Of a DNA stretch of 48,938 nt, positions 12,740-36,907 are shown piece after piece. The stretch lies in assembly GCA_038231515.1 (NCBI GenBank), contig JBBRLF010000002.1, forward strand, positions 1-48,938, written 5' to 3'. Source of the DNA: a candidate division WWE3 bacterium. Its GTDB lineage: Bacteria > Bdellovibrionota > UBA1018 > UBA923. A program made the translations under genes and the position numbers. The first letter of the stretch is position 1. Each line of letters opens with the position of its first letter. Under the pieces are notes generated by a model. It searched no databases and was not told the origin of the DNA. It saw nothing but the letters and a program-made list of their open reading frames with translations.

Positions 12740-12922
12740 TGGGTCGTCTATACCTCGGAGCCAGGACCAGAACAAGCGGCACATGGAACGGCACGCCCTG
12801 GAGCAGGATTCACCCCCGCGTGCTGCTAAAGGCTGCCGCCCAGCCCACCGCAAGTCCGTGAAAGATAAGAAAAAGTATAAAAATAGCGGCAGGATTGCCG
12901 CATACAACAGGCGTCCCGCGGA

Positions 12923-15653: not shown

Positions 15654-15812
15654 ATGAGAACAAAACGCGAGCTCAGCCAGATCTTCTTTTTATTCGTGAT
15701 TCTAATGGCGCTCATGACGCTAAAGCTCGTCAGCGACAGCAACGCCGCCTCGCTCTCAGATGACCTCACCCGCCCGACCCAGCCTGCTGCTACTTCTTCG
15801 GTCCACCCTTAA
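15654..15812 (+). CDS. possible 52-aa small membrane/secreted peptide
   Basis: MRTKRELSQIFFLFVILMALMTLKLVSDSNA... is signal-peptide-like, with GAGGGGG upstream. It converges on and overlaps the last 23 nt of the giant gene. The only support is ORF, RBS and promoter-like signals. Confidence 0.2.
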   Translation: MRTKRELSQIFFLFVILMALMTLKLVSDSNAASLSDDLTRPTQPAATSSVHP

Positions 15813-20952: not shown

Positions 20953-20956
20953 AATT

Positions 20957-21487
20957 TCACTCCACCATTCCGTCGCTGGCTTCAAAAAAATTCTTGAAGG
21001 CATAAGCGACTGCGTCGTCTTTGATTGAGCCCAGGCAAACCTGGGATTTTTCGGATTTTTTTCCTAGTCGATAGGAGATCGCAGCGATATTGCGGCAAAC
21101 CACCTTGGCGCGGTCTACCCGTTTGTTCTCGAACAGGATGCGATCGAGCAGCACCCAGTTGCGGGCCTGCCAGCGCTGGCAGGCGGCTTCGTTAAATTCC
21201 GACTTGGCCTCGGTTACCAGCCGCGAGGCGATTCCCCGCCCGCTTTTTTGTTTGAACGCCATCGTAAAACCGATGGGCCAGTGGTCAGTGCCCTCGGTGG
21301 GCGTGACCGACACGTGGAGTTCGAAATCCTGTTTGCAAGGATTAGGAATCGTGACCACTTTGGCTTTGCTTGCGGCAGCCAGCGGCGCTTTTGCATGAGA
21401 CACCGCGGCCGTCAACGCAACCAAGGCTGTTAAAACAGCTGGAAATAAATATCGCACAAGAGTCCCCCAGTAGCTCAATTGTCTCAA
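20957..21487 (-). CDS. 176-aa secreted hypothetical protein, translationally coupled to the giant gene
   Basis: Signal peptide (...VLTALVALTAAVSHAKAP) and 4 Cys. Its TGA (20957-20959) lies 4 nt before the giant gene's ATG. Confidence 0.65.
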   Translation of the reverse strand: MRQLSYWGTLVRYLFPAVLTALVALTAAVSHAKAPLAAASKAKVVTIPNPCKQDFELHVSVTPTEGTDHWPIGFTMAFKQKSGRGIASRLVTEAKSEFNEAACQRWQARNWVLLDRILFENKRVDRAKVVCRNIAAISYRLGKKSEKSQVCLGSIKDDAVAYAFKNFFEASDGMVE

Positions 21488-21777: not shown

Positions 21778-24090
21778 TATATGGTTATAGGGCGTAACGT
21801 GAATCAATCTGCTCAGTCTCATTGCGACAGAAATGGGCGCGCGCTTGTCGCGACCAAAGATCAATCGAATTTATTGATGCAGCGAATCTGGGTGACCCTT
21901 GCGGTTGCCACCGCGGCAATCACGCTATATTCGAACAATGCATCTGCCTCAATGGATACTCTTCCCGCGCCGGTGACTCCGCCCGTGACGGCTCCCGCCA
22001 AGGTGAAGGAAGATGGCACCGAAGTGGCTCCCTTGCCCACGAAGACGCCGACCGCACCCGCAAGCGAAACAGCCGATCTGGATGCGAAAGTTGCGAGCGC
22101 ATGTGCAGGCGTACCCGAAGACGGCTCGTCCGGCTCTGCCTCCAAGGCGATGATAGCCAGAAACAGCTCTTATGAGTCCTGCATGGATTCTGCTGGCAGC
22201 CAGTTTAAGCCAAAACCCATGGCAGCCAATGCCACCCAACTTCAGGTCGACGCAAATGCACAGCTCGCGGAGCAAAAGGCTGCAGCTGAAAAAGCCTGCG
22301 CCAGATCCAAGTCCTCAGCAGAGGGATCCGATGCGTTAGCCGCTGATGAAGCCGGCGCAAAGAAAAAGGACTGCGACAAAGCTAAATATGACAGAGACCA
22401 AGCCATCCTCGCCGGCCTGCCGGCAAAAGCCAAAAAGTGGGTTCTTGAAACGAATGATGTTACGGGCACAACTGCCGAGATCACCGCTACGAACTGCGCA
22501 CAGGCTCTGTTTGAAAGCGAACACGATACTATCGAAAAGAAAAAAAATCCCGCACCCTCGATTCGCGATACCAAAGGCGCCTGCGATAAAGCCGTGGCGG
22601 TCCTTGGCGCTGGCAAGTCCAAGGAAAGCGCCAAAGCAACCTCGGCCGATGACGCAAAGTTCAAGGCTGATGAGTGCGCTGACGCAGTCCGAGCAGCAAT
22701 GCGCGAAGGTCAGTCCGGTTGTGATACCCCCGATAACTGCGCAAAATTGCACGGCTGCACTGCCGACATCAGCACGATCAAAACCACCGAGGTGGTAAGC
22801 CAGGTCACAACCCAAGGAGTACAGCTGGTTGCTCAGACCACGGGCGCCATCGCTCAAATGAACGTGCAGGCCAGTGCCCAGGCTGCGGCCACCGGTGCCA
22901 ATGGAAAAACCAACGATGATGTCCATAGGGATGCCCTTACGGCAATGGCCACCGCCCAGACCGAAGCTGCGGGCGCTCAATTGGCCGGTGCCACAACACT
23001 CACCGTCACAGCCGCTGTCGAGGCCTACACCGCCAGTGTTCAGTCAGATTCGGTCAAAAAAATATCCGCAAAAATGGACGTTCTTCTCAAACACAATGAT
23101 CTGGTCAAAGATTATATCGCGGACCCGAGCCGTGAAAATTATGAGCTTGTTCACAACGACTATAAAGACAATATGGGGACCCTGGGTACGAATCCAAACA
23201 TGATAAACCAGGAGTCGTCCGCCAAATCGGCAGACCCCGCGCTGATGCAGTTCGACGAAGGCAGGATCAGAGCCGCCCTTGGCACGAAGAAGGCTCTTGC
23301 CGATAAAGCCTCGGGTCTGGCTCTGCAGCACGGCGTACAGGCCGGTGTACTCGCGGCGGGCGGGGCCTTGAATCTGGCTCAGGCCTCGATGCTGCGTGAT
23401 CAACGAGACGCGATGGGCTCGGGTGACATCACCACGTCGGGCGCCCCCGAGTTTCACGCCATCGTGGCCGGTGGGCCCAATGGCGCGCTTGTCGACACCA
23501 GCGCACCTCCGGGCGGCATCACTCAAACTCTGGGCGACGGCGCGGCGGCAACCGCGGCTGAAGCCGCACAAGACACGACGAAGGCGCCCGTGGGCGCAAT
23601 ACCTCCCCCGCTCTTTGGCGGCGCGGCCAATCCTGGCGGACTTAAAGACGCCAGTCCCGGAGTCTCGGGTGGCCTTGCCGGCACGGGCAGCTCCAGCGGC
23701 GGCGGCGGCTCAGCCGGCGGCGGTAGCGGCAGCGGCGGTGGCAGCGATAGCGGCGGCGGAGCCGACAAAGCCGGCGACGAGGCTGTGGGCTCGAAGACCA
23801 AATTCGAAGGTGCCGCAAGCGGCGCAGGCGGATTTGCTTCAAACTCCTCAGGCACCCGCGATAAGAACACGGGCATGTCGGCCGATGGAATTCTCGCGGG
23901 CCTGCTCGGAGCCAAAGGCGACGACCGCAAACCGGCCAGCGACATCGTGAACTTCGGCAAAAACGGCGCTGCGGCGAAAGCTCAGGCGAAGTCAGACGAA
24001 GAAGAAGGAATCCTGGGCAAGAACACGAATCTGTTCACCCGGGTCTCAAAAACCACGGTCAGCTATTACAAAACCGGCAAGCTGAAATAA
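21778..24090 (+). CDS. secreted Ala/Gln/Gly-rich protein, family member 3 (shares the C-terminal module with 26629..28005 and 28273..30741)
   Basis: Hydrophobic signal segment MQRIWVTLAVATAAITLYSNNASA. The start is ambiguous: ATG 21778 has GGGGG upstream, ATG 21877 sits directly at the signal peptide, and the track uses GTG 21715. The C-terminus has a GGGGSAGGGSGSGGGSDSGGG tract and the shared terminal module. Confidence 0.7.
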   Translation, partial: YMVIGRNVNQSAQSHCDRNGRALVATKDQSNLLMQRIWVTLAVATAAITLYSNNASASMDTLPAPVTPPVTAPAKVKEDGTEVAPLPTKTPTAPASETADLDAKVASACAGVPEDGSSGSASKAMIARNSSYESCMDSAGSQFKPKPMAANATQLQVDANAQLAEQKAAAEKACARSKSSAEGSDALAADEAGAKKKDCDKAKYDRDQAILAGLPAKAKKWVLETNDVTGTTAEITATNCAQALFESEHDTIEKKKNPAPSIRDTKGACDKAVAVLGAGKSKESAKATSADDAKFKADECADAVRAAMREGQSGCDTPDNCAKLHGCTADISTIKTTEVVSQVTTQGVQLVAQTTGAIAQMNVQASAQAAATGANGKTNDDVHRDALTAMATAQTEAAGAQLAGATTLTVTAAVEAYTASVQSDSVKKISAKMDVLLKHNDLVKDYIADPSRENYELVHNDYKDNMGTLGTNPNMINQESSAKSADPALMQFDEGRIRAALGTKKALADKASGLALQHGVQAGVLAAGGALNLAQASMLRDQRDAMGSGDITTSGAPEFHAIVAGGPNGALVDTSAPPGGITQTLGDGAAATAAEAAQDTTKAPVGAIPPPLFGGAANPGGLKDASPGVSGGLAGTGSSSGGGGSAGGGSGSGGGSDSGGGADKAGDEAVGSKTKFEGAASGAGGFASNSSGTRDKNTGMSADGILAGLLGAKGDDRKPASDIVNFGKNGAAAKAQAKSDEEEGILGKNTNLFTRVSKTTVSYYKTGKLK

Positions 24091-24093
24091 CTT

Positions 24094-26451
24094 TCAGCGC
24101 GCCTGAAGCTTGTGCTCAACCGTCACGCTTCTTTGAATAAGCACCTGGGGCTTTGAGCCCTCGCGATCGACTACGGCTAAAGTCCACAGCCCTGCCTCAA
24201 GCGGTGCCGGCGCATCCAGCTTGGTGTACGTGCGCGAGTTTTTCATATTGAAAAGAAAAGGCTGAGAAAACACCACGCCCCCAGGCGAGGTCCAGTCCAG
24301 GCTTAGCCGATGCAGCTCGACATAAGACTGCCAGGTAATCCAGGCCATCAGCCGGTCGTTGGGCTTGACGTGGGTGGCCGCCACAAACGAGCCGTCGCCA
24401 TTGGTGTGGCCAAGGGCCAGCGACTTGGGCCCGGGGCGCCCGGCATCCTCGGCCGCGTCGTCGCCGTCGCTGAGCACGCTGCAGCCCTCAAGTCGCCGTA
24501 CATACTCGTTGGTCATGCCGGCAAACCACTGCGTCAGCCGCTGGTCGTAGGCGGCAACCTGCGCGCGCCGGGCGTCATCTGCCTGCGCCAGATTCACCTG
24601 CTCGCGGGAATCGGCATCCAGGTCATAGAGCTCTGCTAAATGCTTATCATTTATACCGCCAATGAACTTCCAGCGCCCGTCGCGCAAGCCCCACTGGTCG
24701 GGTGGAGCATTTTTATAGAAAAAGGCCGTTCGCGGCTCAAACACCGGCGAAAGCAGATTCTGACCCAGCACCGGGCCGCCATGAGTGCCCGCCAGCGCCG
24801 TTAACGTGGGCATGATATCGCCACTCGCCGCCACACGTTTGGCGGTGAGCGGCCCGCGCTCGAAACGCGAGTCGAGAATCACCAGGAAGTTCCGAATATT
24901 TTCTTCGTACAAATGATTGGCATGTAGAAAGTTACCCGCATGCACGTCGCCAAACGCCTCGCCGTGATCACCGGTAAGCACCACCAGCGTGTCGTCGAGC
25001 AGCCCGCGATAGGCCAGGTTTTCGAGCAGTTTTTTTAGGACAAAGTCGGTGTAACTCAAAGAGTTGCGATAGCGATCCTGGGCAGTCGTGCCTTTGAACG
25101 GCGGCAGGTAGCCGCGCGCGGTGCCATAGGGGTGGTGGGTGGAGATCGTCAGAAACTCAAAAAAAAATGGCCGGTCGCGCCCCGGATGCTCCGCGCCGTC
25201 GAGCCAGTCCAGAATCTCAACGCCCACCGAGTCTTCACTACCACCCCACGAATGAACACGATGATCGAGCTGATAATAGAGCGGCGTCGCCCCAAAGTCA
25301 TAAAGCTTATCAAAGCGGCCAACGCTGGCCAGCAGCTGCGCTAGCCTTTCTGCCTCAAGCACGGGCGCCGAAAACAGCGCCGTGTGATAACCCGCCCGAT
25401 GCAGCTCGCCCGACAGGGTTGGCGCCACATATCGGCATTCGATGGCATCATCAAAACCACCCCAGGTCATCGCAAAGCCCCCCGTATTGATGGGCTGGTG
25501 CGCGCGCGTAGTCGCAGGATAAATTCCATACAGCGAGTCGAAGATCACCGCATGCTTTTCAAACGAATGCAAAAACGGCGTAACTGCCGGCGAAAATCCG
25601 CCGTTGGGCGCAAGCAGCTGGGTTGCCCCCACCGACTCCAGTACGACCAACACGATATTGGGTCGGCGCACCTCGCGCCTGCGCTGGTGAGCATAGGCGG
25701 CTAGCGCGCGGGCCTCGCTGCCGCTTGCGTCGCGTGGCCCGTACACGGGTTCAAACAACGACGAGTTCACCCGCGCCTGGGCCAGCTTCAAAGCCGCAGG
25801 CGCAGGCACGTCGCCCGCCCTCGTGCCCCGGTGCTGAACATAGTCCCGCCCCAACGCCAGCAGCGGGTGCTCAGCCAAGCCATAGGTTTCGGTGCCCGAC
25901 ATGACAAGCACGCTCACGAGCAGATAATGCACGAGCCAGTAACCCCAGCTGCGCTGGCGACGTACAGCGACGCCAATGAGCGGCGCGCTCTTCGCACTAC
26001 GCTCGCGACGCAACACCAGCCACGTCAAGCCCAAACCAAGCGCTACAACCAGCAAAACATTAAACACACTCACGCCATCGACTTCGGCCAGCGCCGAATC
26101 GACGAACAGCCGCCAGTGCGTTGCACCCCGGTTCATGGAAGGCACGAAGTGAGTTGAAAAAATCCGAACCACCATCTGGTCAAGAGCCACATAGCCGTTG
26201 AGCACGGTTACCACCGCCACGCCGACAAGCCGCCCAAGCTTTTTTTTCGAAATGAGATAGACCAGTCCGCCCAAGCCCACTGCGATCACCAGATTCTCAA
26301 GCTGCAAAAACGGCAGGCGCGCCAGAAATAGCGCGGCCCCTCGAAAATCAGAACGAAACGCACCGAAAAAGCCTTCGAGCTGGGTGACGACGACAAACAA
26401 AATATGGGTCGCGGCAATCCAAAACGCCACGCGTAGCCGGTCTGAGCTCAA
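24094..26451 (-). CDS. LtaS/phosphoglycerol- or phosphoethanolamine-transferase-type (sulfatase-fold) membrane enzyme
   Basis: About 5 N-terminal TM segments, then an alkaline-phosphatase-superfamily core (NIVLVVLESVGATQL, VVLTGDHGEAFG). An extra ~130-aa C-terminal domain follows. Confidence 0.85.
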   Translation of the reverse strand: MSSDRLRVAFWIAATHILFVVVTQLEGFFGAFRSDFRGAALFLARLPFLQLENLVIAVGLGGLVYLISKKKLGRLVGVAVVTVLNGYVALDQMVVRIFSTHFVPSMNRGATHWRLFVDSALAEVDGVSVFNVLLVVALGLGLTWLVLRRERSAKSAPLIGVAVRRQRSWGYWLVHYLLVSVLVMSGTETYGLAEHPLLALGRDYVQHRGTRAGDVPAPAALKLAQARVNSSLFEPVYGPRDASGSEARALAAYAHQRRREVRRPNIVLVVLESVGATQLLAPNGGFSPAVTPFLHSFEKHAVIFDSLYGIYPATTRAHQPINTGGFAMTWGGFDDAIECRYVAPTLSGELHRAGYHTALFSAPVLEAERLAQLLASVGRFDKLYDFGATPLYYQLDHRVHSWGGSEDSVGVEILDWLDGAEHPGRDRPFFFEFLTISTHHPYGTARGYLPPFKGTTAQDRYRNSLSYTDFVLKKLLENLAYRGLLDDTLVVLTGDHGEAFGDVHAGNFLHANHLYEENIRNFLVILDSRFERGPLTAKRVAASGDIMPTLTALAGTHGGPVLGQNLLSPVFEPRTAFFYKNAPPDQWGLRDGRWKFIGGINDKHLAELYDLDADSREQVNLAQADDARRAQVAAYDQRLTQWFAGMTNEYVRRLEGCSVLSDGDDAAEDAGRPGPKSLALGHTNGDGSFVAATHVKPNDRLMAWITWQSYVELHRLSLDWTSPGGVVFSQPFLFNMKNSRTYTKLDAPAPLEAGLWTLAVVDREGSKPQVLIQRSVTVEHKLQAR

Positions 26452-26628
26452 GTGTTTCTCCTCGCTTCAGTGTCCTTCAAAGCTGCCCAATTTTCAGCAC
26501 CCATTCCAGACGCCCCCCACCCGCTCGGATTCGCTGGGCTTTCGCAACCCCTTGGCAGCACTTGATTACCTGACTAATAAAGACGTACAATGATAACGTT
26601 GGGGAAAGCGTCATTTACCGGGGGACGT

Positions 26629-28005
26629 ATGCTTAAATTTTTACGAAATAACGGTCTTGTGGCCATGATGGCAATGCTCGTCATGGTCAGTGGCATCAGT
26701 CACACGACAAGCGCGCACGCCGACGCCGCGCCACCCGCGGCTAAACCGGACACCGCCGGCGGACAAGACCCCTGCTCCGTAACCGACGACTCCGCGGCCC
26801 ACGAGCAGTGTAACGAAAAAGATCTCGCCATCGGCACCGCGGCTGCGCAGTCGGCCGAGGCCACCGCGTTTCTCGTCGCTGCGATTATCTGTACGGTTGC
26901 CTGCGTGGAATATGCCGACGCCTCTGGTATCGACGGTCAACATGCAGCCGGCGAAGCTTTGCTCAATGGCGCCTGTCGAATCGCGGGCTTTGTCGCACTG
27001 GGCGTTGATGTCGCGGGCGGCGTTGCCGTCACTGCCGCCAGCGCCGCCATTCAAAAGAAAGTCGATGGCGGATCCCTGGCCATGAGCCTGGGAATGACCG
27101 CTGTAGGCGCCATCGTATCTGTTGCGGCTGGTGTCTCGTGCCCGTTAACGCCAATTATGGATTTTCTGCAAGCCGGCATCCGTGGCGTCAATATGGGGAT
27201 GAGTATTGACCAGGCTAACAAAGCCAGAACCGCTGCCAAAGAAACCCGGCAATACAAGGCGTCCAATGCGCAAATTTCCAAAGTTGCCACCGCCGGCGGT
27301 GCTGCGGGCAGCGCGGCCGACTCCACGCAGGCCTCTGCAACGGCAAGCGATCCTAAATTGCTGCGCGACATGCCCGCTGCGGACAAGAAAAAATTCAGCG
27401 ACAAAAACTTCGCCCAGTCCAGCGCAACGGCCGCCGATGGGCCGGCAAGAGCGGTGCTTGCCGAGGAGTTTAAAAAGATGACGGGCCATAGTCCCGACGA
27501 TCTCACCAAGCATCTGCTCGATGGGGAGTCGGCTACCGCAGCCGCGCTGGCCGTGGCTGGCGACAAGATGGGCCCTTACACCAAACTTGTCGAGCGTATG
27601 GACGCAAACCGCGACAAGCTCTACACAGAGTTTGCCGGCGCCGGTGATGCCCCGGTTGGCAAGTCCACCGACTTTGAGGTGGCCTCAGCCGCGAGCAAAC
27701 ACTCAAAATCCAAAAGCGATGGCATGCCCGACGTAAGCGCCATGCTGGCCGCCATGCACGCCAAAAAAGGCGCAGCCGACGCACCCAAGACGGCAGCGCT
27801 CGACTTCGGCACGAAGAAACACGAGCCGGCAAATGCCGAAGGCCTACATCCGCCGAGCCGCTCGCTCTTCGACATCATCGATTCGCGTTACGAGCTGGTG
27901 CAGACCCGTTTTCTGGCCGGCCAGGACATCGGCATGCGCGCGCCGGCCTCGGTGGTCACGCCGCCCGTGGGCAGCGCGCCCACGAATATCTATCTCAAAC
28001 AGTGA
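26629..28005 (+). CDS. secreted Ala/Gly-rich protein, family member 1
   Basis: Start at ATG 26629 (MLKFLRNNGLVAMMAMLVMVSGISHTTSAHA). It is preceded by cgggggacgt, the same leader found before the paralog's GTG at 28273. Long collinear motif blocks are shared with 28273..30741. Confidence 0.8.
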   Translation: MLKFLRNNGLVAMMAMLVMVSGISHTTSAHADAAPPAAKPDTAGGQDPCSVTDDSAAHEQCNEKDLAIGTAAAQSAEATAFLVAAIICTVACVEYADASGIDGQHAAGEALLNGACRIAGFVALGVDVAGGVAVTAASAAIQKKVDGGSLAMSLGMTAVGAIVSVAAGVSCPLTPIMDFLQAGIRGVNMGMSIDQANKARTAAKETRQYKASNAQISKVATAGGAAGSAADSTQASATASDPKLLRDMPAADKKKFSDKNFAQSSATAADGPARAVLAEEFKKMTGHSPDDLTKHLLDGESATAAALAVAGDKMGPYTKLVERMDANRDKLYTEFAGAGDAPVGKSTDFEVASAASKHSKSKSDGMPDVSAMLAAMHAKKGAADAPKTAALDFGTKKHEPANAEGLHPPSRSLFDIIDSRYELVQTRFLAGQDIGMRAPASVVTPPVGSAPTNIYLKQ

Positions 28006-28073
28006 AACTCTTGACGTCAGGAATAGGCCCGGTTAAAAGAGTGCTAACCCGCATACTTCGTCGTGAATTGTGT

Positions 28074-28146
28074 GGGCGTGTAGCTCAGCTGGGAGAGCAC
28101 CTCCATGGCATGGAGGGGGTCGCAGGTTCAATCCCTGTCACGTCCA
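28074..28146 (+). tRNA. tRNA-Ala (anticodon GGC)
   Basis: Hand-folded cloverleaf: acceptor GGGCGTG/CACGTCC with the G3:U70 Ala identity pair, anticodon arm CCTCC-ATGGCAT-GGAGG, T-arm GCAGG-TTCAATC-CCTGT. CCA is not encoded. Confidence 0.93.
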
Positions 28147-28272
28147 CAGAGTTCATGACCGAAATTATGAATGAACACCCAAAAGCTGGAAAATCCATTT
28201 CCCAACACTTGGGAACCATTAAATAAACCTATTCTGAGTCACTCGGCGTTATAATTAACGTACGGGGGACGT

Positions 28273-30741
28273 GTGGGCAAATTACAGAAGACGGGTCTAA
28301 TCAGGTCTACGACCATCGTTGTACTTGGAGCATTCGCTCTGCAGCTTGTAGCACCAGGCTTTAGCACGGTCTCGAGCGCGCGCGCCGACAGCACGGCCCT
28401 ACCCCCTAAAGGCGGAGCGGTTGGAGATACCGAAAAAGGAGCACCAGGCTCGGGCGGCGTAGGCGACCCGTGCGATGTGGTTGACGAGTCTGCCGCCAGC
28501 GAACAATGCAACGTCAAGAAACTTGCCATCACGACCGCCGTGATTCAGGGCGGTGAAGCTTTGGCCTTCACGACTGCCGCCACTCTGTGCACCGTCGCGT
28601 GCGTGGCGCAAGCTGCCGACAAAGCCGCAGGCAAGGCCGCAAAAGAAGCCGCCGAAGCCGCCGATAAATTCGCACAGACAACGGGCCCGGACATTAAAAA
28701 GCATACCGAGCCAATCCAGGGCCTGGTTGCCAAGGCAAAAGACGGCCTGGAGGCCTCCAAGGATTGTGGCCTGCCGGGCACCGGTAAGCTACCAAAGGCA
28801 GTCCCACCCGGCCCGCCGGCCGTAACCGCATGCACGAATGATGCGTCCGAACGCACAGCCAATAAAGACTTTGCTGGTGCCGCTAAAGCGACAGAAGGAT
28901 CTACCGCCGCAGTCGCGTATAACGAGGGCATTGTGAGCTGCGTGGAATCTGCCGCCCATGGTCAGGTGACCATGGTTAAGGCCGCCGCAGAAATTGGCCT
29001 GGCGCAAGAAGCCGCCGCAGAGCTGGTCGCGGAAGAAGCACCGACTGTTGGCATGGGCCAGACGGTCATCAAGACGGGAGAGGCCGCGTTCGTAGGCCCC
29101 TCGCCCTCGGAGGCAAGCGAGGTGATCGCTGAAGCAGCCGCGGATGCGCTCGATAAAAAAGCAGACTTGATGCTCACCGCTTCAAACAGACTCAGAGACC
29201 AGGCAAACAATTATCTTCAAGATCAGACCACCGGCGCAATTCAGTTCGAACATGTGGTGCTTGGCTCGGCATCGAAGCTCGCCGAAGATGAGATCCCCAA
29301 AGGGGCCTGCTCTGTAATTTCAAAGCTCACCGATGCGGGCAAAGAAGGCTCTAAAGAGGCCACCGACAAGGCCGGTAATGCGGCCTGCGCTCAAGGCGTC
29401 ACAGTTATCGTGGGCACCGTCCTGGCGCCAGACTGTTTGAAAGATCTGACCAGTCCTGCAAAGGAAGCAGATTCGGCGTGTGCCGCCGCCTCGGGCAAAC
29501 TGCAGCCCCTGAAAGCCGAAGCGATGAAGATGGCCTCAGGTCTCACACCAATCGTAGGCTGCCCCGGGCTACCGGGTGCCCCCAGTGTGCCACCCGGCGA
29601 AGTCGAAGTTTACAAAGACATGACCACTCTCGTGGTCACAACGGCCAAGGCAGCCCACAAGGCCCGCACATTCCGTGAATCCACCCGCACCGCCTGCAAG
29701 ATCGGCAACTATGCCGCACTCGGTGTGGACGTCGCCGGCGGTATCGCAACCACGGTAGCTGGCGCCGCGATTACCAAGAAAATCGACGCAGGCTCGATCA
29801 CCGGTCTGACCACCACCGTGGCCATGGATGTCGCGCAGCAAACCCTAAATAAAACGGACAACGATAAAGGCAGCCAGCAAGAAGAGATCAACTGCCCGCT
29901 CGAGCCCATCACTCACTTTCTGCAGGCCGGCATTCGCGGCGTAAATATGGGAATGAGTATCGCCAAGGCCAACGAGGCCTCGCACTATGCGCTGGAGCTC
30001 AGAGTTTATAAGGGCGGCTCAAGCCCTACCCAAGTCGCCAAGGGCGGTGGAGCAGCTAGCGGTGGTGGTGACAACAGCGGCAGCGCAGGCCCCGAGCAGG
30101 CTCAGGATCCCAAGATGCTCCGAGATCTGCCGGCCGCGGACAAAAAGAAATTTACCGCCGCAAACTTCGCGGCCTCGAGCGCCACGGCAGGCGAAGCCAA
30201 GACCATGGCTCCGGCCCTGCTTGAAGCCACCACGGGCCACTCCGCCGAGGAGCTCAACAACAGACTCCTCAATGGCGAGTCACCCATGGAAGCGGCGATG
30301 GCCATCTCAGGCGCGCAGATGGGCAGCATGCTGCCCATTGTAGCCGCGCTTCACCAGAATAAAGATCAGCTCTACAAAGAACTGGCCCCCGAGATGGAGC
30401 AGGTTCACGTGTCCAAGAATGACTTTGATTCTGGCAAAGGCGGCTCAGCCAAACACCACAGTAGCAGCAGTGACGGCATGCCAGACATGAGCGCGCTGCT
30501 GGCTGGACTGCAGGGTAAACAGAAGGAAGCAGGTCCACCGGGCTCCAAAACGGTGGCCTTTGGCCAAGGCGCCAAGACCTCGGGCGTGAGCGCTGATGGT
30601 CTGCACCCCGCAAGCAAATCGCTCTTCGACATCATTGGCACGCGTTATCAGCTCGTTCAAAAGCGCTTTCTGGCGGGCGAAGCCACTGGCATGGATCAGG
30701 CGCCGTCGAGCGTGCCAAAAAACATCTATCTGCGGAAGTAA
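28273..30741 (+). CDS. secreted Ala/Gly-rich protein, family member 2 (expanded paralog)
   Basis: GTG start and signal peptide (IVVLGAFALQLVAPGFSTVSSARA). It has the same N-terminal Cys block, hydrophobic core and C-terminal module as 26629..28005, plus an insertion of roughly 350 aa. Confidence 0.85.
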   Translation: MGKLQKTGLIRSTTIVVLGAFALQLVAPGFSTVSSARADSTALPPKGGAVGDTEKGAPGSGGVGDPCDVVDESAASEQCNVKKLAITTAVIQGGEALAFTTAATLCTVACVAQAADKAAGKAAKEAAEAADKFAQTTGPDIKKHTEPIQGLVAKAKDGLEASKDCGLPGTGKLPKAVPPGPPAVTACTNDASERTANKDFAGAAKATEGSTAAVAYNEGIVSCVESAAHGQVTMVKAAAEIGLAQEAAAELVAEEAPTVGMGQTVIKTGEAAFVGPSPSEASEVIAEAAADALDKKADLMLTASNRLRDQANNYLQDQTTGAIQFEHVVLGSASKLAEDEIPKGACSVISKLTDAGKEGSKEATDKAGNAACAQGVTVIVGTVLAPDCLKDLTSPAKEADSACAAASGKLQPLKAEAMKMASGLTPIVGCPGLPGAPSVPPGEVEVYKDMTTLVVTTAKAAHKARTFRESTRTACKIGNYAALGVDVAGGIATTVAGAAITKKIDAGSITGLTTTVAMDVAQQTLNKTDNDKGSQQEEINCPLEPITHFLQAGIRGVNMGMSIAKANEASHYALELRVYKGGSSPTQVAKGGGAASGGGDNSGSAGPEQAQDPKMLRDLPAADKKKFTAANFAASSATAGEAKTMAPALLEATTGHSAEELNNRLLNGESPMEAAMAISGAQMGSMLPIVAALHQNKDQLYKELAPEMEQVHVSKNDFDSGKGGSAKHHSSSSDGMPDMSALLAGLQGKQKEAGPPGSKTVAFGQGAKTSGVSADGLHPASKSLFDIIGTRYQLVQKRFLAGEATGMDQAPSSVPKNIYLRK

Positions 30742-31399: not shown

Positions 31400-32647
31400 T
31401 TGCTGATTGATTGGCTCTGGGCCTCTCTGATGACCGTCTGCCTTTGGCTCGAAGTCGGGGGCTGGGCGCGGCTCGTTACCCGCACCATCTTTCAAAAACC
31501 GACGCGCAGCTCCCTGGGTGGCCGCCTGGCCCTGGCGCTGGCTTTCGGCCTGACCGCCCAGGCGTATTTCATCTTGAGCCTGCTTGGTCGCGGCAGCCCC
31601 GGCCTGCACGTGGCTTTGATGATCATCGGAATCATACTGTTCGCGCTGCCCAAGTCACACGCCACGAGCCCACCACCAAATGAGCCCCGCCTGCATCTGC
31701 GCCTGGCGCGCTATTTTTCGTTACTCAGCTGGAAGCGCTCGGCCCTTTGGCTGATTTTACCTGTCATCTGGACCGCACTGCGCGTGCTCGATGCCCTGGT
31801 GCCGCGTAACGCAAACGGGCCGCTGGCCCACACCCTTTATGCCCCCAAGCATTGGCTTCAGGACGGGGCACTTACGGGCTCGCAGCTTGACCCTCTACAC
31901 CCCTTTGGTGCATTGGCCTCGGTGTGGCAAGGCCTGACCTATCATCTGCTGATCGTCATCAAGGCCTTTGGCCCCGTTGCGCGTACGGCCCTGGTTCGCA
32001 CGCAAATCACAGCCCAGCTCGTGCATCTGACCGCGGGACAGCTTCTCACGCTTTTTCTGCTCGCGCGGCTCATCCTGCCCTTCATTCGAGCTGGCTGGGA
32101 CCGGCTGGTCCACCTCGAGGCCAGCGCCGAGCGACGCCCCCAGCTGGGAATGGCGTCGAGCGTGGCGCTGCCCGCCTCATTTTTTTTCGCGTGGATTGCC
32201 TGCGGGCCCACCTCGACTTCGGGCACCCTGGCTGCCACCGACTGGGGTGGCGCGATGCTGGTGCTTGCCGCAGTCTCGCTGGCCTTGCGTCCGGCCGAGC
32301 CCAGCTCAATCGGGCTGGCTGGCCTGCTCTGGGGCACTGGCGTTGCCGCGCAGGTCACCGAAGTGCTCACGTTGCCCGCATTTCTGGCCGTAGTCGCGAG
32401 CTCGCAGCTGAGCTCAGCCCCAATAGCACGGGCAAAATGGCCTAAACTTGCGGGTTCGCTTTTACTGGGCGTGGGCTGTGGACTGGCCCCGTGGTTGTGG
32501 CGCAACTACACTCAAGCCGGAAGTCTTTTCTATCCGTCTTCTGATCTCATGCGTCTGCCCGTTGCGCAGTTTTTGAACTGGGAGGTCGACTGGGGCTGGG
32601 CCGTTAAAACCATGCTCACGCTTGGACTGCCAGCCATTGCTTATTAA
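31400..32647 (+). CDS. polytopic membrane protein (N-terminal part of a possibly split gene)
   Basis: About 10 hydrophobic segments. The track uses a TTG start at 31400; the first ATG is at 31430. It ends at TAA 32645-32647, in frame with the next ORF. Confidence 0.6.
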   Translation: MLIDWLWASLMTVCLWLEVGGWARLVTRTIFQKPTRSSLGGRLALALAFGLTAQAYFILSLLGRGSPGLHVALMIIGIILFALPKSHATSPPPNEPRLHLRLARYFSLLSWKRSALWLILPVIWTALRVLDALVPRNANGPLAHTLYAPKHWLQDGALTGSQLDPLHPFGALASVWQGLTYHLLIVIKAFGPVARTALVRTQITAQLVHLTAGQLLTLFLLARLILPFIRAGWDRLVHLEASAERRPQLGMASSVALPASFFFAWIACGPTSTSGTLAATDWGGAMLVLAAVSLALRPAEPSSIGLAGLLWGTGVAAQVTEVLTLPAFLAVVASSQLSSAPIARAKWPKLAGSLLLGVGCGLAPWLWRNYTQAGSLFYPSSDLMRLPVAQFLNWEVDWGWAVKTMLTLGLPAIAY

Positions 32648-32689
32648 CTGTGGCGCGCCCGCGGGCGGCCGCGGCCAACCGAGCTGGCG

Positions 32690-33298
32690 GTGCCGGCGCT
32701 TACCCTCTTTGCGGTGGTGGGGCTGCTGACCGAGCTTTGCTGGGGCTCGCTTACGCCGTCAGTAGGCACCGCACTTTTATGTGTGGCGACTTTGGGCATC
32801 GAGTTTCTGCTCACCTTCCTGATTCGCACGCGCCTGCCCGGCATGAGCCGCAGTCTGCCACTGGCTTGGCTTGGCGTGGGCCTGATTACGGTACCTCTGC
32901 CCGTGCACCTGTTATGGCAGCACCTGCCCTTGGCGTTTCGCACTGCCGACAGCTATCTGTCGGCCTACCACCGCCATTTTGACGTCAAGCTTTGGGCCAA
33001 TCTGCATTTGCCGCCGACTAGCCGACTGGTGTGGACGTCTGACAACGAATTTTATTATCTCGAGCAGCCCAGCGCGAGTATTCGCGAATCCAATATCATC
33101 TACTCGGCTCTCTCGCGGGCCCCCAATCCCAGCGAACGCGCCCGGGTGCTTTGTGACCTGGGCTTTGACGTGCTGGCCTGGGAAGAGCGCGACCATGGGC
33201 CGGAGTCGGCAGGCCTGGCTTCGTGGCTGCTGATGACCAAGAATACGGTTTTGCATACGGGCGATGGGGTTACCTTCTTTGATTTGAAGTGCCATTAG
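32690..33298 (+). CDS. membrane protein (C-terminal part of a possibly split gene): 3-4 TM segments plus a soluble domain
   Basis: GTG start, same reading frame as 31400..32647, separated from it by one TAA and 14 sense codons. Confidence 0.5.
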   Translation: MPALTLFAVVGLLTELCWGSLTPSVGTALLCVATLGIEFLLTFLIRTRLPGMSRSLPLAWLGVGLITVPLPVHLLWQHLPLAFRTADSYLSAYHRHFDVKLWANLHLPPTSRLVWTSDNEFYYLEQPSASIRESNIIYSALSRAPNPSERARVLCDLGFDVLAWEERDHGPESAGLASWLLMTKNTVLHTGDGVTFFDLKCH

Positions 33299-33701: not shown

Positions 33702-34100
33702 ATGATGCGTGGATTCGGGCCTCGTAAGCCCAAAACTCAGCGCGCTAAAGAGCGCAAAGCCATTCCGTTTCACCGCGTAAGCGCTGAGATCCTGATCGAC
33801 TCCACCAAGGAAGTCGCCGACAGCCGCGTGTTCCTCAACGATCTTAGCCCGACGGGCGTGGGCTGCTTCGTTAATGTGGCCCTTGAAAAAGGCGAAGTCG
33901 TCTCGATCGTCATCGAGCAACCCAAGCACCTGTACGTCAAAGGCCAGGTCATGTGGTGCGCGCCCTACACAATGAGCACCAAAGTTTTGAGCGCCGAGCA
34001 GTTTAAATATCGCGTGGGCATTCGGTTTAGCTTTGACTCGGAAGACGAAAAGTCGGCTTTGAAGAAGTACTGCGAAGAGCTTTACTCCGACGCTAGTTGA
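33702..34100 (+). CDS. stand-alone PilZ-domain protein
   Basis: The RAKER (RxxxR) and DLSPTG (DxSxxG) c-di-GMP-binding motifs have appropriate spacing. ATG 33702/33705 is preferred over the TTG at 33696. Confidence 0.75.
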   Translation: MMRGFGPRKPKTQRAKERKAIPFHRVSAEILIDSTKEVADSRVFLNDLSPTGVGCFVNVALEKGEVVSIVIEQPKHLYVKGQVMWCAPYTMSTKVLSAEQFKYRVGIRFSFDSEDEKSALKKYCEELYSDAS

Positions 34101-34201
34101 GAAGAGCGCGGGCATTCGGACATCAGACGTCTGGCGTCCGACACGCGGGCAGTCCGTGCGGGCGTCTGACGTCGGGTATGGCTACTGCGCCCCGACTTCC
34201 G

Positions 34202-34293
34202 AGCTTTCGCAGCCGACCGTTGAAGTGCTACGCAGATGTGCTATTCCTCATCGTGTGGTCCCATAGTTAAATGGATATAACGGAGCTTTCCTA
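34202..34293 (+). pseudogene. orphan copy of the tRNA-Arg upstream region plus the tRNA 5' half (nt 1-37)
   Basis: 92 nt match 34389..34480 with 4 mismatches by eye. The tRNA part (34257-34293) stops right after the anticodon (CCT A) and has no 3' half. Confidence 0.8.
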
Positions 34294-34388
34294 CAAGCCT
34301 TTTGCGCCCCACGCGCAAAACCTACAATCCGGCTCGCAGGATGCGAGCCTTCTGCTCGAAGCTGCGAGCGCAGGAGCACGCGAGCGAA

Positions 34389-34480
34389 AGCTTTCGCAGC
34401 CGACCGTTGAAGTGCCGCGCAGATGTGCTATTCCTCGTAGTGTGGTCCCATAGTTAAATGGATATAACGGAGCTTTCCTA
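34389..34480 (+). repeat. second copy of the 92-nt repeat (promoter-like region plus 5' half of the intact tRNA-Arg)
   Basis: Direct repeat of 34202..34293 at a 187-nt period. Contains TTGAAG (34407-34412), a 16-nt spacer, then TATTCC (34429-34434). Confidence 0.8.
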
Positions 34481-34518
34481 AAGCTTTGTTGCAAGTTCGA
34501 TTCTTGCTGGGACCACCA
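34444..34518 (+). tRNA. tRNA-Arg (anticodon CCU), CCA encoded
   Basis: Hand fold: GGTCCCA TA GTTA AATGGATA TAAC G GAGCT TTCCTAA AGCTT TGTT GCAAG TTCGATT CTTGC TGGGACC A CCA. All four stems pair. Confidence 0.9.
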
Positions 34519-34594
34519 TTTCAACACCGTTGAAATGGTGGTTTTCTAATGCTGAAGCGCGCAGCGCTTCGTACCCTACAGCAAGAATCGAATG
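34501..34594 (+). repeat. 94-nt repeat copy 1 (last 18 nt of tRNA-Arg plus 76 nt downstream)
   Basis: Repeated at 34681..34774 (about 14 mismatches in 94, counted by eye). It ends in CAGCAAGAATCGAA, the reverse complement of the tRNA T-arm segment 34496-34509. Confidence 0.8.
34512..34547 (+). terminator. rho-independent terminator whose 5' arm is the tRNA ACCACCA end
   Basis: accaccatttcaac-acc-gttgaaatggtggt forms a 14-bp perfect stem followed by TTTTCT. Confidence 0.6.
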
Positions 34595-34680
34595 CCGGAA
34601 GGCGCCGGGTGCCCGCTTGCGGGCGGCGACTGAGGCCGGCCTGCAGGCCGAGCGCGAACAGCGCGAGGACCGGAAGGCGC

Positions 34681-34774
34681 TTCTTGCTGGGACCACCATT
34701 TCAACGCAGTTGAAATCGTGGTGTAACAATAATGAGGCGCAAAGCGCTTCGTGCCCCACAGCAAGAATCGAATG
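34681..34774 (+). repeat. 94-nt repeat copy 2 (tRNA-Arg 3'-end fragment plus a degenerate terminator)
   Basis: Same length as copy 1. The hairpin carries a mismatch and has lost its T-run. It is preceded by the 11-nt direct repeat CCGGAAGGCGC, which is also found at 34595-34605. Confidence 0.8.
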
Positions 34775-34838
34775 GGTTCTCGATCTCGACACATTGAGGG
34801 ATGTGGGCTGGCTCACGACCTACGGGTCTACTACAAAA

Positions 34839-35060
34839 ATGTCATTACAAATCAGCTTTATGTCAGAAGGAGGATCGGGAACAGAAGTGCCTGACCTCTC
34901 TATCGAAAGAAAGGAGCTCGCTTTAAGATCGAGTATCCGCTTACTGAAGAGCCCTGGGGAGTTCGCAGATTTTTTGTGCGTGATTCCATTGGAAAACCTG
35001 GCACATACTCTGCACATAGAAATTGATAGAGTTAGCGCGACCAAAACAAGACACACTTGA
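34839..35060 (+). CDS. possible small ORF, or the 5' part of a frameshifted gene
   Basis: ATG 34839 or 34860 (AAGGAGG nearby). It encodes ...MSEGGSGTEVPDLSIERKELALRSSIRLLKSPGEFADFLCVIPLENLAHTLHIEI... in AT-richer sequence. It overlaps the next ORF by 38 nt in another frame. Confidence 0.25.
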   Translation: MSLQISFMSEGGSGTEVPDLSIERKELALRSSIRLLKSPGEFADFLCVIPLENLAHTLHIEIDRVSATKTRHT

Positions 35061-35463
35061 TAGTTGGATCGAACGCGAGTCCACGGGACTGCCGGCAAGC
35101 CAGCTTGGGTTGCTGTACACCTATGCGTTAAACATGGTCTGGCAGCGCGCCAAAATAACGCTCAGCGAGGTTTCCCTATCCGTCATTTTTGACCGTGTAT
35201 TGTATCTGAGCCGCGACAAATTTCCGATATTGTCCGATCTCAAACTACAAACCAACGGCGTTCTTCTAGACGACCATTCAAACCGCATCTGTAACTCCCC
35301 GCCAGCTGAAGTTACCCAGGCGTTTCGCCACCTGCTCAATAACCTGATCTCCATACTGGGAACATTCTCGGCCGATACTCTGACTGGACCTTTAAACGAG
35401 GAACTAAACAAAATCACCGCCGCGCAAATATCAGAACCGGTGCCAGAACGAGAGGCCAAATGA
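35023..35463 (+). CDS. hypothetical protein upstream of the KaiC-like gene (start uncertain)
   Basis: Its stop overlaps the KaiC-like ATG (ATGA). The track's start is TTG 35023; the first ATG is at 35134. I recognise no motif. Confidence 0.5.
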   Translation: MIELARPKQDTLDSWIERESTGLPASQLGLLYTYALNMVWQRAKITLSEVSLSVIFDRVLYLSRDKFPILSDLKLQTNGVLLDDHSNRICNSPPAEVTQAFRHLLNNLISILGTFSADTLTGPLNEELNKITAAQISEPVPEREAK

Positions 35464-36902
35464 AAAAGGAAATGAACACTGATCGTCGAATCAAAACCGC
35501 GGTAATTAATCTGGACGCTGTCCTGAATGGCGGTATTCCCGAGGACTCCATGGTTATGGTTATCGGGGTACCCGGTACCGGAAAAACAATCCTCTCTCAC
35601 CAAATTGCGTTCAGTAATGCCAATGCCGACAGCCGCTGTCTTATTTTTCAGACTCTCTCAGAGCCGGCATCTAAAGCCCTAAGACACCTTTCTCAATTTG
35701 ATTTCTACAACCCAAAGCTCATTGACGAGGGAATCATTCAGCTGATCGATCTAGGCGCCCTTATTCGAGCCTCCAGACTCGATGAAGTCATTCCGATGAT
35801 CATGGAACACGTAAAAAGGGTTAGGCCCAAATTCGTAATCGTGGACAGTTTCAAGGTTTTCGAAGATCTGGCCACGAACTCCCAGGATCTGCGAAACTTC
35901 TCATATGAAGTGGCGATTCACCTGATGGCCTGGGAATGTACTTCATTTCTACTCGGCGAATATACCCCCCAGGACGTCGAGACTAACCCGCTATTCTCGA
36001 TCGCCGACGGCATTCTGCGGCTCAGCCTTCGACAAGAAGAGGGCGAGCAGCAGCGTTTTTTACAAGCCACCAAAATGCGGGGAACGTCCCACAGCGTTGA
36101 TGAGCACGCACTTTTCATTAGTAACTCAGGAATAAGCGTTTATGCTCCGCGCGTTACCATTCGTCGCGAAAGCGTTGCCGACCCTTACACCAAGGCCCGG
36201 GCCCCATTGCGCGCCAAGCTGGGTATTTCGAAAATCGACGAACTTTTGGGCGAGGGCGTGCCGTATGGATCCAGTATGCTCATTTCTGGTGTTGCCGGTA
36301 CCGGCAAATCCCTTCTGCTGCTTGAGTTCATCTATCGCGGTGCCAAGGAGTTTAACGAAAAAGGAATAATTTTCTCCTTCGAGGAAACCGAAGAAAGAAT
36401 TCTGGCAGTTGCTCAGGGAATGGGTTGGGACCTATTGACCGAAATAAAGAGGGGCATGATCGAAATCGTTTTTGTGTCGCAGCCTGAAATTGTCGTGGAA
36501 CGAGACCTGCTGATGATGCATGAGCGAATAACAAAGATGAAGGCGAAACGCGTAGCCGTCGACTCGGCCTCCATTTTTGTGCACAAGATCACCGATTCGC
36601 GAATTGTGCGCGAAAAAATCTACCAGCTCACCACCCTTGTCCAAATGTCGCAGGCCATAGGCTTTTTAGCCTCAGACATCACCTACGGCACAAACAGAAT
36701 CAGCCGCTTTGGAGTGGAAGAGACGGTTGTTGACGGGTTGATTTTGCTGACTTCCAATGCCATTGGCGACGAGCGCGAACGATTTCTGGAAGTGTATAAG
36801 CTCAGAAACACGGCTCACGTCGACGGCAGGCATAGGATGACCATTGCGCACGGTGGAATCGTAATATATCCCCGCATCCAGCTGGAAAAGAAGATCGCAT
36901 AA
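35460..36902 (+). CDS. KaiC-family double RecA-like-domain ATPase
   Basis: Two tandem domains each carry GG(I/V)P...G(V)xGTGK(T/S) Walker A (GVPGTGKT at aa 36-43, GVAGTGKS at aa 277-284) and hhhhD Walker B (FVIVDS, RVAVDS). Domain 2 keeps FSFEETEE. Confidence 0.9.
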   Translation: MKKEMNTDRRIKTAVINLDAVLNGGIPEDSMVMVIGVPGTGKTILSHQIAFSNANADSRCLIFQTLSEPASKALRHLSQFDFYNPKLIDEGIIQLIDLGALIRASRLDEVIPMIMEHVKRVRPKFVIVDSFKVFEDLATNSQDLRNFSYEVAIHLMAWECTSFLLGEYTPQDVETNPLFSIADGILRLSLRQEEGEQQRFLQATKMRGTSHSVDEHALFISNSGISVYAPRVTIRRESVADPYTKARAPLRAKLGISKIDELLGEGVPYGSSMLISGVAGTGKSLLLLEFIYRGAKEFNEKGIIFSFEETEERILAVAQGMGWDLLTEIKRGMIEIVFVSQPEIVVERDLLMMHERITKMKAKRVAVDSASIFVHKITDSRIVREKIYQLTTLVQMSQAIGFLASDITYGTNRISRFGVEETVVDGLILLTSNAIGDERERFLEVYKLRNTAHVDGRHRMTIAHGGIVIYPRIQLEKKIA

Positions 36903-36907
36903 ACCCC

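Follow-up and report, generated by a model that had tools for sequence, protein, structure and literature searches.

What do two alanine-rich proteins of no recognisable kind have in common, why does a tRNA-Ala(GGC) gene lie between their genes, and what might such proteins do for the cell? These questions are raised by a 48,938-nt stretch of contig JBBRLF010000002.1 (GenBank assembly GCA_038231515.1, positions 1 to 48,938 of the forward strand), which is filed under candidate division WWE3 and is placed among the Bdellovibrionota in the GTDB taxonomy; the whole of this stretch is referred to below as the window. It is a chromosomal segment of a Gram-negative bacterium, with genes for DnaE, GuaA, GuaB, a MiaB-like protein, LptD and asparaginase and with a GC content of ~0.58. 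A short earlier note, drawn up from the letters of the window, had described the two proteins as a paralogous pair carrying signal peptides and flanking the tRNA gene. With considerable confidence, the two can now be assigned to an exported, Cys-conserving, all-alpha family confined to one lineage, which comprises old paralogues, is associated with a conserved gene cluster, has a C-terminal module in common with the product of a conserved partner gene upstream (designated U) and is linked to a promoter-like motif. The elements in question are:

26629..28005, + strand: gene A, short form of the family, 458 aa (P0001); open reading frame (ORF) list, BLASTP, HMMER
28074..28147, + strand: tRNA-Ala(GGC); ARAGORN, Rfam (59.3 bits)
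28273..30741, + strand: gene B, long form of the family, 822 aa (P0002), GTG start; ORF list, BLASTP, HMMER

The paralogous pair and its family

The relationship between A and B was assessed by BLASTP with composition-adjusted statistics. Residues 115-458 of A align with residues 474-822 of B at 45% identity over 363 columns (E 4e-83), and the N-terminal ~100 residues of the two proteins are 44% identical (E 6e-18). Both proteins are rich in small residues (20.3% Ala and 8.5% Gly in A, 17.4% Ala and 10.5% Gly in B), and their likeness is far above the chance level for such a composition. The claim of a paralogous pair is thus borne out, and the sequence blocks, ORFs and tRNA gene quoted in its favour were all found where the earlier note had placed them. 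In essence, B corresponds to A with a helical insert of ~360 aa between helices 1 and 2, i.e., between the first two of the blocks (a and b) that had been listed. Conservation of the translation-initiation leader was confirmed as well: a 10-nt leader, CGGGGGACGT, is identical together with the start codon in A, in B and in the orthologue of B found in a second genome (L001). The start of A was taken at 26629 and not at the upstream ATG 26590, since the -10 box in the predicted promoter extends to 26591 and 26629 is preceded by GGGGGA as a Shine-Dalgarno sequence.

At residues that are identical in A and B the third codon positions agree in a proportion of 0.46 only, and the longest exact nucleotide match between the two genes is 17 nt. 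Gene conversion or a recent duplication is ruled out by these values; the duplication is therefore old, and the similar blocks have been kept by selection on the proteins. The orthologue of B in L001 (P0003) is 64% identical to B over the C-terminal 360 aa. In a rough neighbour-joining tree, A and another short protein, P0004, fall inside the clade that holds all long forms, and A may for this reason be a secondarily shortened copy, an assignment that is tentative.

To delimit the family, a profile consisting of A and the two homologous parts of B was run exhaustively with HMMER against 1.84 billion representative proteins. This search yielded 32 proteins at E values up to 1e-3, 27 of them at E values up to 1e-10, which split into short forms of about 400-510 aa and long forms of about 700-860 aa. 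Where source names are given, the matches are recorded as a "hypothetical protein" of a "Deltaproteobacteria bacterium" (a groundwater metagenome-assembled genome), an "Oligoflexia bacterium" or a "Bdellovibrionota bacterium", and nearly all of the family clusters are metagenomic singletons. A scan of metagenomes added two further loci only, both of which come from species groups that were already represented. For comparative purposes twelve loci (L001 to L012) were fetched, which together carry eight family proteins. The counts of conserved residues given below cover 30 full-length members, those of Cys parity and of the last residue cover 32, and the Pfam scan and the alignment used for modelling cover 31.

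Neither A nor B has a match in Pfam or NCBIfam, nor has any of the 31 aligned members, the Pfam scans going up to E values of 0.05-1; among the neighbouring genes, only those for the sulfatase-family enzyme, a fatty-acid hydroxylase and housekeeping functions were recognised. Searches of PDB sequences with B and with the family profile returned nothing below an E value of 0.2, the best entry being a UBA domain at a non-significant E value of 0.21. No relatives were encountered in plasmids or phages (tBLASTn) or in a scan of viral contigs, and Foldseek searches with the model of A gave nothing below E 0.6 in PDB or E 0.08 in BFVD. A word-indexed protein search with A, with an alignment of the C-terminal parts of A and B and with a 32-sequence alignment of the C-terminal module recovered essentially the query only, the index being seemingly swamped by low-complexity sequence or insensitive. 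Rfam models detected two tRNAs in the window and nothing else, and a literature search found no description of this family. The statement that none of the blocks could be assigned to a known domain has therefore held up: the Pfam, NCBIfam, PDB and Foldseek searches produced no clear match, by profile or by structure, to a characterised family that might account for them. As judged from these searches, this is a previously undescribed small family, restricted to uncultured bacteria of the Bdellovibrionota or Oligoflexia-like type. The weight of such a finding is moderate, because the carriers are uncultured organisms, among which unknown families are common.

Architecture of the family proteins

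Combining the family alignment with AlphaFold2 models allowed the following parts of the two proteins to be delineated:

26629..26721, + strand: predicted signal peptide of A, aa 1-31, with A-H-A before D32; basic n-region, hydrophobic core and A-x-A site read from the sequence
26767..27285, + strand: putative N-terminal Cys-stapled helical bundle of A, aa 47-219; AlphaFold2 model, Cys conservation
27355..27645, + strand: compact middle domain of A, aa 243-339, with the motif S-x-A-T-A ... F-E-x-x-T-G-x-S ... G-x-x-P-x-x-A-A; model, family conservation
27715..28002, + strand: C-terminal module of A, aa 363-458; alignments, hhalign and hmmsearch against U
28612..29685, + strand: insert of B, aa ~114-471, between helices 1 and 2; alignments, model
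30457..30738, + strand: C-terminal module of B, aa 729-822, with the end P-K-N-I-Y-L-R-K; alignments

The signal peptides proposed earlier are well supported. That of A displays a basic n-region, a hydrophobic core and an A-x-A site, B has a counterpart of 38 residues ending in A-R-A before D39, and a signal peptide with an A-x-A-type cleavage site stands at the start of nearly every full-length member.

The first part of the mature protein contains six conserved Cys columns (C49, C61, C88, C92, C116 and C171 in the numbering of A), all of which are present in 21 of the 30 full-length members. Losses are correlated: C88 and C116 (the third and the fifth column, C3 and C5) are missing together in four members, C49 and C61 (C1 and C2) in three, and C171 is invariant. 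In addition, the mature part holds an even number of Cys residues in 26 of the 32 proteins. Because these residues are lost in pairs, C49 probably forms a disulfide with C61 and C88 with C116, which by elimination leaves C92 to pair with C171. The model of A, built from the 31-sequence alignment, is all-alpha, with a mean predicted local distance difference test (pLDDT) value of 68.7 and a predicted template modelling score (pTM) of 0.60, and its first four helices (57-99, 106-142, 152-166 and 173-219) form an up-down bundle in which the Cys-bearing ends of helices 1, 2 and 4 meet at one pole, in agreement with the proposed staples. An Asp of helix 2 (Asp127 in A), conserved in 28 of the 30 members, is buried in the modelled four-helix bundle, and helix 4 bears a conserved face, Q-x-x-x-R-x-x-N-x-x-x-S. 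A disordered Gly/Ser/Ala linker then leads to the compact helical middle domain, which is modelled over residues ~250-339 with pLDDT values mostly of 84-95 and is conserved family-wide.

The insert of B is helical in prediction, rich in Ala, Thr, Lys and Glu, and contributes eight extra Cys residues. In the model of B (pLDDT 61.8) helix 1 is lengthened to residues 75-166 and a return helix spans residues 443-501, the middle of the insert being modelled as helical at low confidence. The extended helix 1 and the return helix together suggest that the insert would form a stalk projecting from the stapled pole.

The last ~95 residues constitute the best conserved part of the family. The first half of this module follows the pattern G-M-P-D-L-x-A-L-M-A-x-L-M-P-K-K, then G ... 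V-x-F-G, and the second half E-G-F-H-x-x-x-R-S-[IL]-F-[DE]-[IV]-V-x-x-R-Y-Q, F-L-x-G and a terminal P-x-N-[PI]-Y-L-[KR]-[KR]; in A, G-M-P-D is followed by an amphipathic helix, by a second helix with G-x-H-x-x-x-x-S-L-F-x-x-V-x-x-R-Y and by the terminal P-x-N-I-Y-L-K-Q. In the model of A the tail consists of two short amphipathic helices (369-377 and 413-429) and is otherwise disordered. The very last residue is Lys in 18 of the 32 proteins, Arg in 6 and Gln, Pro, Asn, His or Phe in 8, with Gln in A. Searches against NCBIfam and Pfam for known C-terminal sorting signals (PEP-CTERM, GlyGly-CTERM, LPXTG, MYXO-CTERM and the C-terminal domain of type IX secretion, T9SS CTD) gave no match, and the tail contains no hydrophobic helix.

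A related module closes the product of gene U. Its last ~70 aa read T-G-M-D ... L-L-A-x-F-L-P-K-K ... I-x-N-F-G ... G-I-L-G-x-N-x-N-L-F-x-R-V-S ... Y-x-x-G-x-L-K, and comparison by hhalign of the family profile with a profile of four U sequences gave a probability of 93.6% and an E value of 2e-7 over 61 columns. Furthermore, a family hidden Markov model (HMM) built without U sequences matches four U proteins in the module region with 19-31 bits. Within the window the module occurs in A, B and U only.

The gene cluster, its promoter-like motif and the tRNA

The genes around A that were compared with the fetched loci, and the promoter-like elements preceding U and A, are:

15790..21003, - strand: giant secreted Cys-rich protein, 1737 aa; conserved beside U
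20957..21487, - strand: small secreted 4-Cys protein, ~130 aa in the mature form, divergent from U; orthologues in L002, L003 and L006/L007
21721..21750, + strand: promoter-like element of U, TTGATTACCCGAC-N11-TACAAT; motif conserved in relatives
21782..24090, + strand: gene U, exported or membrane-anchored product rich in Ala, Lys, Asp and Gly; orthologues directly upstream of a family member
24094..26451, - strand: membrane enzyme of the sulfatase/alkaline-phosphatase superfamily, LtaS/EptA/YejM-like, 785 aa; Pfam Sulfatase (E 2e-28), NCBIfam
26562..26591, + strand: promoter-like element of A, TTGATTACCTGAC-N11-TACAAT; motif common with the U elements

U is likely to start at ATG 21782 and not at GTG 21715 of the ORF list, as the latter lies inside the promoter-like element. 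A family member is the next gene after the U homologue in six lineages, i.e., the window, L002, L003, L004/L005/L011, L006/L007/L012 and L008, with the sulfatase-family gene intervening in the window; in L003, L004, L006 and L008, U and the family gene overlap by their stop and start codons (ATGA). The genes of the 4-Cys and giant proteins lie upstream of U on the opposite strand in the window, L002, L003 and L006/L007, where upstream sequence exists. A third, more diverged full-length paralogue follows just downstream in L003 and L004 (E 2e-25 and 4e-32 to the family HMM). Hence the order of the cluster is the giant and 4-Cys genes on one strand, U, a family member and often a third paralogue on the other, and then tRNA-Ala(GGC).

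The partner proteins of different loci are mutually homologous at 25-44% identity. Orthologues of the 4-Cys protein (~170-220 aa across loci) are 31-44% identical and retain four invariant Cys residues. The giant protein possesses a conserved N-terminal domain of ~550 aa, followed by ~7 repeats with a C-x-[YF]-x-C-x-C motif. Beside U, the protein is conserved in L002 and L003, and the match in L007 is a homologue of the N-domain only (695 aa). U and the 4-Cys and giant proteins have no Pfam or NCBIfam match. A metalloprotease motif considered for the giant protein was rejected, because the candidate His is not conserved. The sulfatase-family enzyme carries a C-terminal extension of ~150 aa, and its gene is found between U and A in the window genome only, being absent from this place in L002, L003, L004, L006 and L008. 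Two traits are thus particular to the lineage of the window, namely this gene and the long form behind the tRNA, the latter being found in L001 too. Genes for a histidine kinase and an asparaginase flank the cluster both in L003 and in the window. The cluster is a syntenic region of the core genome, inherited vertically.

Some features of the surroundings deserve mention. Toxin-antitoxin genes (HipA, HicAB and AbiEii) are located in or beside the cluster in L004 (4634..7275 and 11444..12740), and a 391-aa ORF, ATPase-like in appearance, lies beside it in L001 (2534..3709). Given these mobile or defence-type insertions in relatives, the flanks are prone to insertion while the order of the core is kept. 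Downstream of B, a conserved membrane-protein gene that is a single 635-aa ORF in L001 is split in the window (31400..33298) by an in-frame TAA at 32645..32647, which corresponds to a Tyr codon in L001, and the ORF list accordingly shows ORFs of 415 and 202 aa; the TAA could be a nonsense mutation, the mark of a pseudogene or a sequencing error. Further on, the GC content falls to 0.51-0.53 at 34001..38000, just past tRNA-Arg(CCT) (34444..34518), in a segment with genes for a KaiC-like ATPase and a histidine kinase, which may represent an island at this tRNA.

The promoter-like motif, TTGAYTACYYGAC-N11-TAHAAT, recurs upstream of U in L002 (5881..5910), L003 (7451..7480), L006 (6511..6540) and L007 (6301..6330). 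In the 49-kb window it occurs exactly twice, upstream of U and upstream of A, versus 0 expected by chance, and the genomes in which it is specific to the cluster have proteins of only 25-45% identity. It can be read as a promoter of the sigma-70-like type, with a -35 box TTGATT, an 18-nt spacer and a -10 box TACAAT; the spacer is conserved, hinting at a site for a regulator or at a special sigma factor. The splitting of the operon by the sulfatase-family gene left A with a copy of the cluster promoter, either retained or newly acquired. Upstream of B lies another conserved region, with a TATAAT box. An extracytoplasmic-function (ECF) type promoter picked out by eye upstream of B (GGAAC ... TCTGA) was rejected, as its elements are wrongly spaced and L001 does not conserve it.

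As for the tRNA between the two copies, the locus was compared with relatives, as the earlier note had called for. The tRNA-Ala(GGC) gene follows the cluster in L002, L003, L006/L007/L012 and L008, and the L001 contig begins inside it, 126 nt upstream of the orthologue of B. Since the tRNA is found beside the cluster in five independent lineages, it is an ancestral neighbour of the cluster as a whole. The tRNA itself is therefore not the unusual part of the arrangement; what is particular to the window lineage and L001 is the presence of B downstream of it. A search for a second copy of the 3' end of the tRNA, allowing up to 3 mismatches, was negative, which leaves no attachment (att)-like repeat, and there is no integrase ORF between the tRNA and 34 kb, the GC content being flat (0.58-0.60) across 24-34 kb. 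An att repeat or island at the tRNA-Ala gene was rejected in the absence of a repeat of its 3' end, as was an Ala codon usage specially adapted to the tRNA, given that A, B and U choose their Ala codons like the rest of the window. It was also observed that two independent metagenomic contigs break exactly at this gene (L001 1..73 and L002 9451..9526), which may mean that these genomes contain the tRNA or its surroundings in repeated form, or that the site is prone to assembly breaks.

Possible role and comparison with known systems

The best explanation overall, although a tentative one, is that of a lineage-specific exported family whose members would be subunits of an extracytoplasmic assembly of the cell envelope. 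The mechanism by which they may do so is more conjectural still. The family proteins and their partners would be stoichiometric subunits of a lineage-specific assembly in the periplasm or on the surface, in which U, the A-type protein and the third paralogue might use the common C-terminal module to dock to a single partner or to one another. A packing or oligomerisation core could be provided by the stapled bundle of small residues, and short and long forms would differ in reach, the long forms extending further. Several points weigh against this explanation. The long forms of L009 and L010 stand alone at other chromosomal sites, away from the cluster, so that a neighbouring cluster is not a requirement for every member. 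The disulfide pairing is derived from correlated loss in a few clades, where the loss of C3 and C5 was possibly a single evolutionary event; the models are of medium confidence only (pLDDT 62-69), the C-terminal module being poorly modelled. The bundle helices of A and of the distant member P0032 are hydrophobic enough for transmembrane segments, and weak, non-significant Foldseek matches to alpha-pore-forming toxins recur. A bolder version, which appears doubtful, regards the cluster as an unrecognised envelope machine specific to the Bdellovibrionota, perhaps a helical membrane-active or trans-envelope complex for contact with prey or surfaces, with a new common C-terminal docking module that would recruit its subunits, a dedicated promoter and a permanently linked tRNA-Ala(GGC) that perhaps serves an unusually high demand of the genes for Ala.

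The hydrophobicity of the bundle bears on two alternatives. The earlier note had considered the blocks now assigned to the bundle (a-c) as possibly membrane-inserting, and in part this stands: the Kyte-Doolittle values reach transmembrane level in three segments of A (1.8-2.0) and in four of P0032 (2.0-2.55). For the family as a whole it does not stand, as most members lie below that level, the region of helix 3 is often polar, variable or Gly/Met-rich and the Cys residues behave as disulfide staples; the bundle is accordingly more probably soluble than transmembrane. That the proteins are integral to the inner membrane, with the four bundle helices spanning it and the C-terminal half in the periplasm, is thus very unlikely, even though a conserved acidic residue lies within helix 2 and V-ATPase c-subunits are among the weak Foldseek matches. 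A polytopic pattern of four conserved transmembrane helices was not found across the family. Moreover, the loop between helices 1 and 2, which such a topology would put into the cytoplasm, is acidic and devoid of Lys and Arg in A and holds a Cys-rich insert of 350 aa in the long forms, including B, which fits an oxidising compartment; the conserved Cys residues, for their part, are placed at the ends of helices, and their loss is pairwise. A multi-component alpha-helical membrane-active system, pore-forming or translocon-like, makes other use of the same helices: the helix 2-helix 3 hairpin would be shielded while disulfide-locked and would, jointly with the paralogous partners, insert into a target membrane, e.g., that of prey. 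The phylum includes predators, A contains a hydrophobic two-helix hairpin of small residues (118-136 and 151-169, Kyte-Doolittle 1.8-1.9), a Gly/Met-rich hydrophobic segment of helix 3 recurs in many members, and two or three paralogous exported all-alpha proteins per operon are reminiscent of tripartite alpha-pore-forming toxins; in addition, ClyA, MakE, AhlB/C, SmhB, XaxB and PaxB appear repeatedly near the top of the Foldseek lists. These matches, however, are not significant (E 1.3-6, TM-score at most about 0.25-0.27, probability 0.16 or less), and none of the 31 members matches HlyE or HBL of Pfam. Two of the proposed disulfides would tie helices 1, 2 and 4 at one pole, which speaks against the extensive refolding required of such toxins, the middle and C-terminal domains have no counterpart in alpha-pore-forming toxins, and the cluster belongs to the syntenic core genome and not to an island, all of which makes this alternative unlikely.

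The C-terminal tail and the tRNA suggest two further possibilities. As an analogue of Braun's lipoprotein (Lpp), the family might provide a periplasmic spacer or tether between the outer membrane and peptidoglycan, the rod-like protein being attached or bound to the latter by its basic C-terminal tail and the short and long forms setting different distances. The C-terminus of Lpp is Y-R-K, and the family tail recalls it, ending in Lys (18/32) or in Lys or Arg (24/32), preceded by a conserved aromatic residue; these Ala-rich proteins are exported, their promoter and Shine-Dalgarno signals are strong, their genes are part of the core genome, and the model of B contains a helix of 92 residues. 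Nevertheless, a tether of this kind is quite improbable, since no lipobox ([LVI][ASTVI][GAS]C) was found in the family, whose signal peptides have A-x-A-type sites, a terminal Lys is not strictly kept (Gln in A; Pro, Asn or His in others), the proteins are multi-domain and far larger than Lpp, and the cluster contains no L,D-transpeptidase gene. The idea that the link to the tRNA is itself the functional point, with B as the cargo of a tRNA-Ala island or the tRNA as a local supply for genes of 17-20% Ala, is the most remote of those considered. It draws on the position of the tRNA next to the cluster in five independent lineages, on the Ala content of A, B and U (17-20% versus 6-14% for other genes of the window), on the GCC and GCT codons that make up ~60% of their Ala codons and on the lack of a + strand terminator-like site between the stop codon of A and the tRNA. 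Their choice of Ala codons is the same as elsewhere in the window, though, and with the whole region syntenic, including the histidine kinase and asparaginase genes, the tRNA may be a mere neighbour; around B there is no tRNA 3'-end repeat, integrase or GC shift, and B, an old paralogue, has its orthologue in L001 at the corresponding place.

If extracytoplasmic assembly subunits are indeed what these genes encode, the family and its cluster, which lack detectable relatives in Pfam, NCBIfam, PDB and predicted viral structures, would be a new component of a poorly known cell envelope, maintained in the core genome of an uncultured lineage whose phylum is known for its predators. They would also offer a test case for a common C-terminal docking module, for disulfide-stapled Ala-rich bundles and for a conserved promoter specific to the cluster. 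What is novel is the family and the cluster as such, and the practical significance will stay modest as long as there is no cultured carrier.

Among the known systems, toxins of the ClyA superfamily (the tripartite AhlABC, SmhABC, MakABE, Hbl and Nhe and the bipartite XaxAB and YaxAB) come close in being exported, all-alpha elongated bundles with a hairpin of small hydrophobic residues; the two or three paralogous genes of their operons have an analogue in the layout seen here, where a family member, a third paralogue and U, which has only the C-terminal module in common, lie in one operon. The family differs in lacking a significant sequence or structure match to them (a weak negative, given models of medium confidence) and in its six Cys residues stapling the bundle, its extra helical domain, its C-terminal module and its core-genome cluster. 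With Lpp and other tethers between the outer membrane and peptidoglycan it has in common an Ala-rich, helical, exported nature, a C-terminus that is aromatic and then basic, and the existence of length variants, whereas it has neither a lipobox nor an N-terminal acylation site, varies in its terminal Lys, is 8-15 times larger and is composed of several domains.

In Foldseek, the B model comes closest to UmbC (PDB 8w20, chain A; E 1.6e-3, probability 0.69), the stalk and ring protein of the Streptomyces umbrella toxin particles, from another phylum and another secretion context. Both possess a very long antiparallel helical stalk, but a TM-score of 0.10 and a root-mean-square deviation (rmsd) of 79 A indicate that only the long-helix character is common, and no Pfam domain, hence no ALF repeat or toxin domain, was detected in B or in the other long forms. 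Below UmbC the list contains alpha-pore-forming toxins at E 1.6-6; these matches of B reflect long helices and not a common fold. U, in turn, resembles TolA and TonB in its N-terminal hydrophobic anchor or signal, its long stretch rich in Lys, Ala, Glu and Asp, its Gly-rich linker and its small conserved C-terminal module; it differs from them in that it has no TolA or TonB profile match, no TolQR or ExbBD genes nearby and a C-terminal module that is unrelated in sequence. The family and its gene cluster fall outside every known kind with which they were compared, be it ClyA-type toxins, Lpp, UmbC, polytopic membrane proteins, C-terminal sorting signals or tRNA islands.

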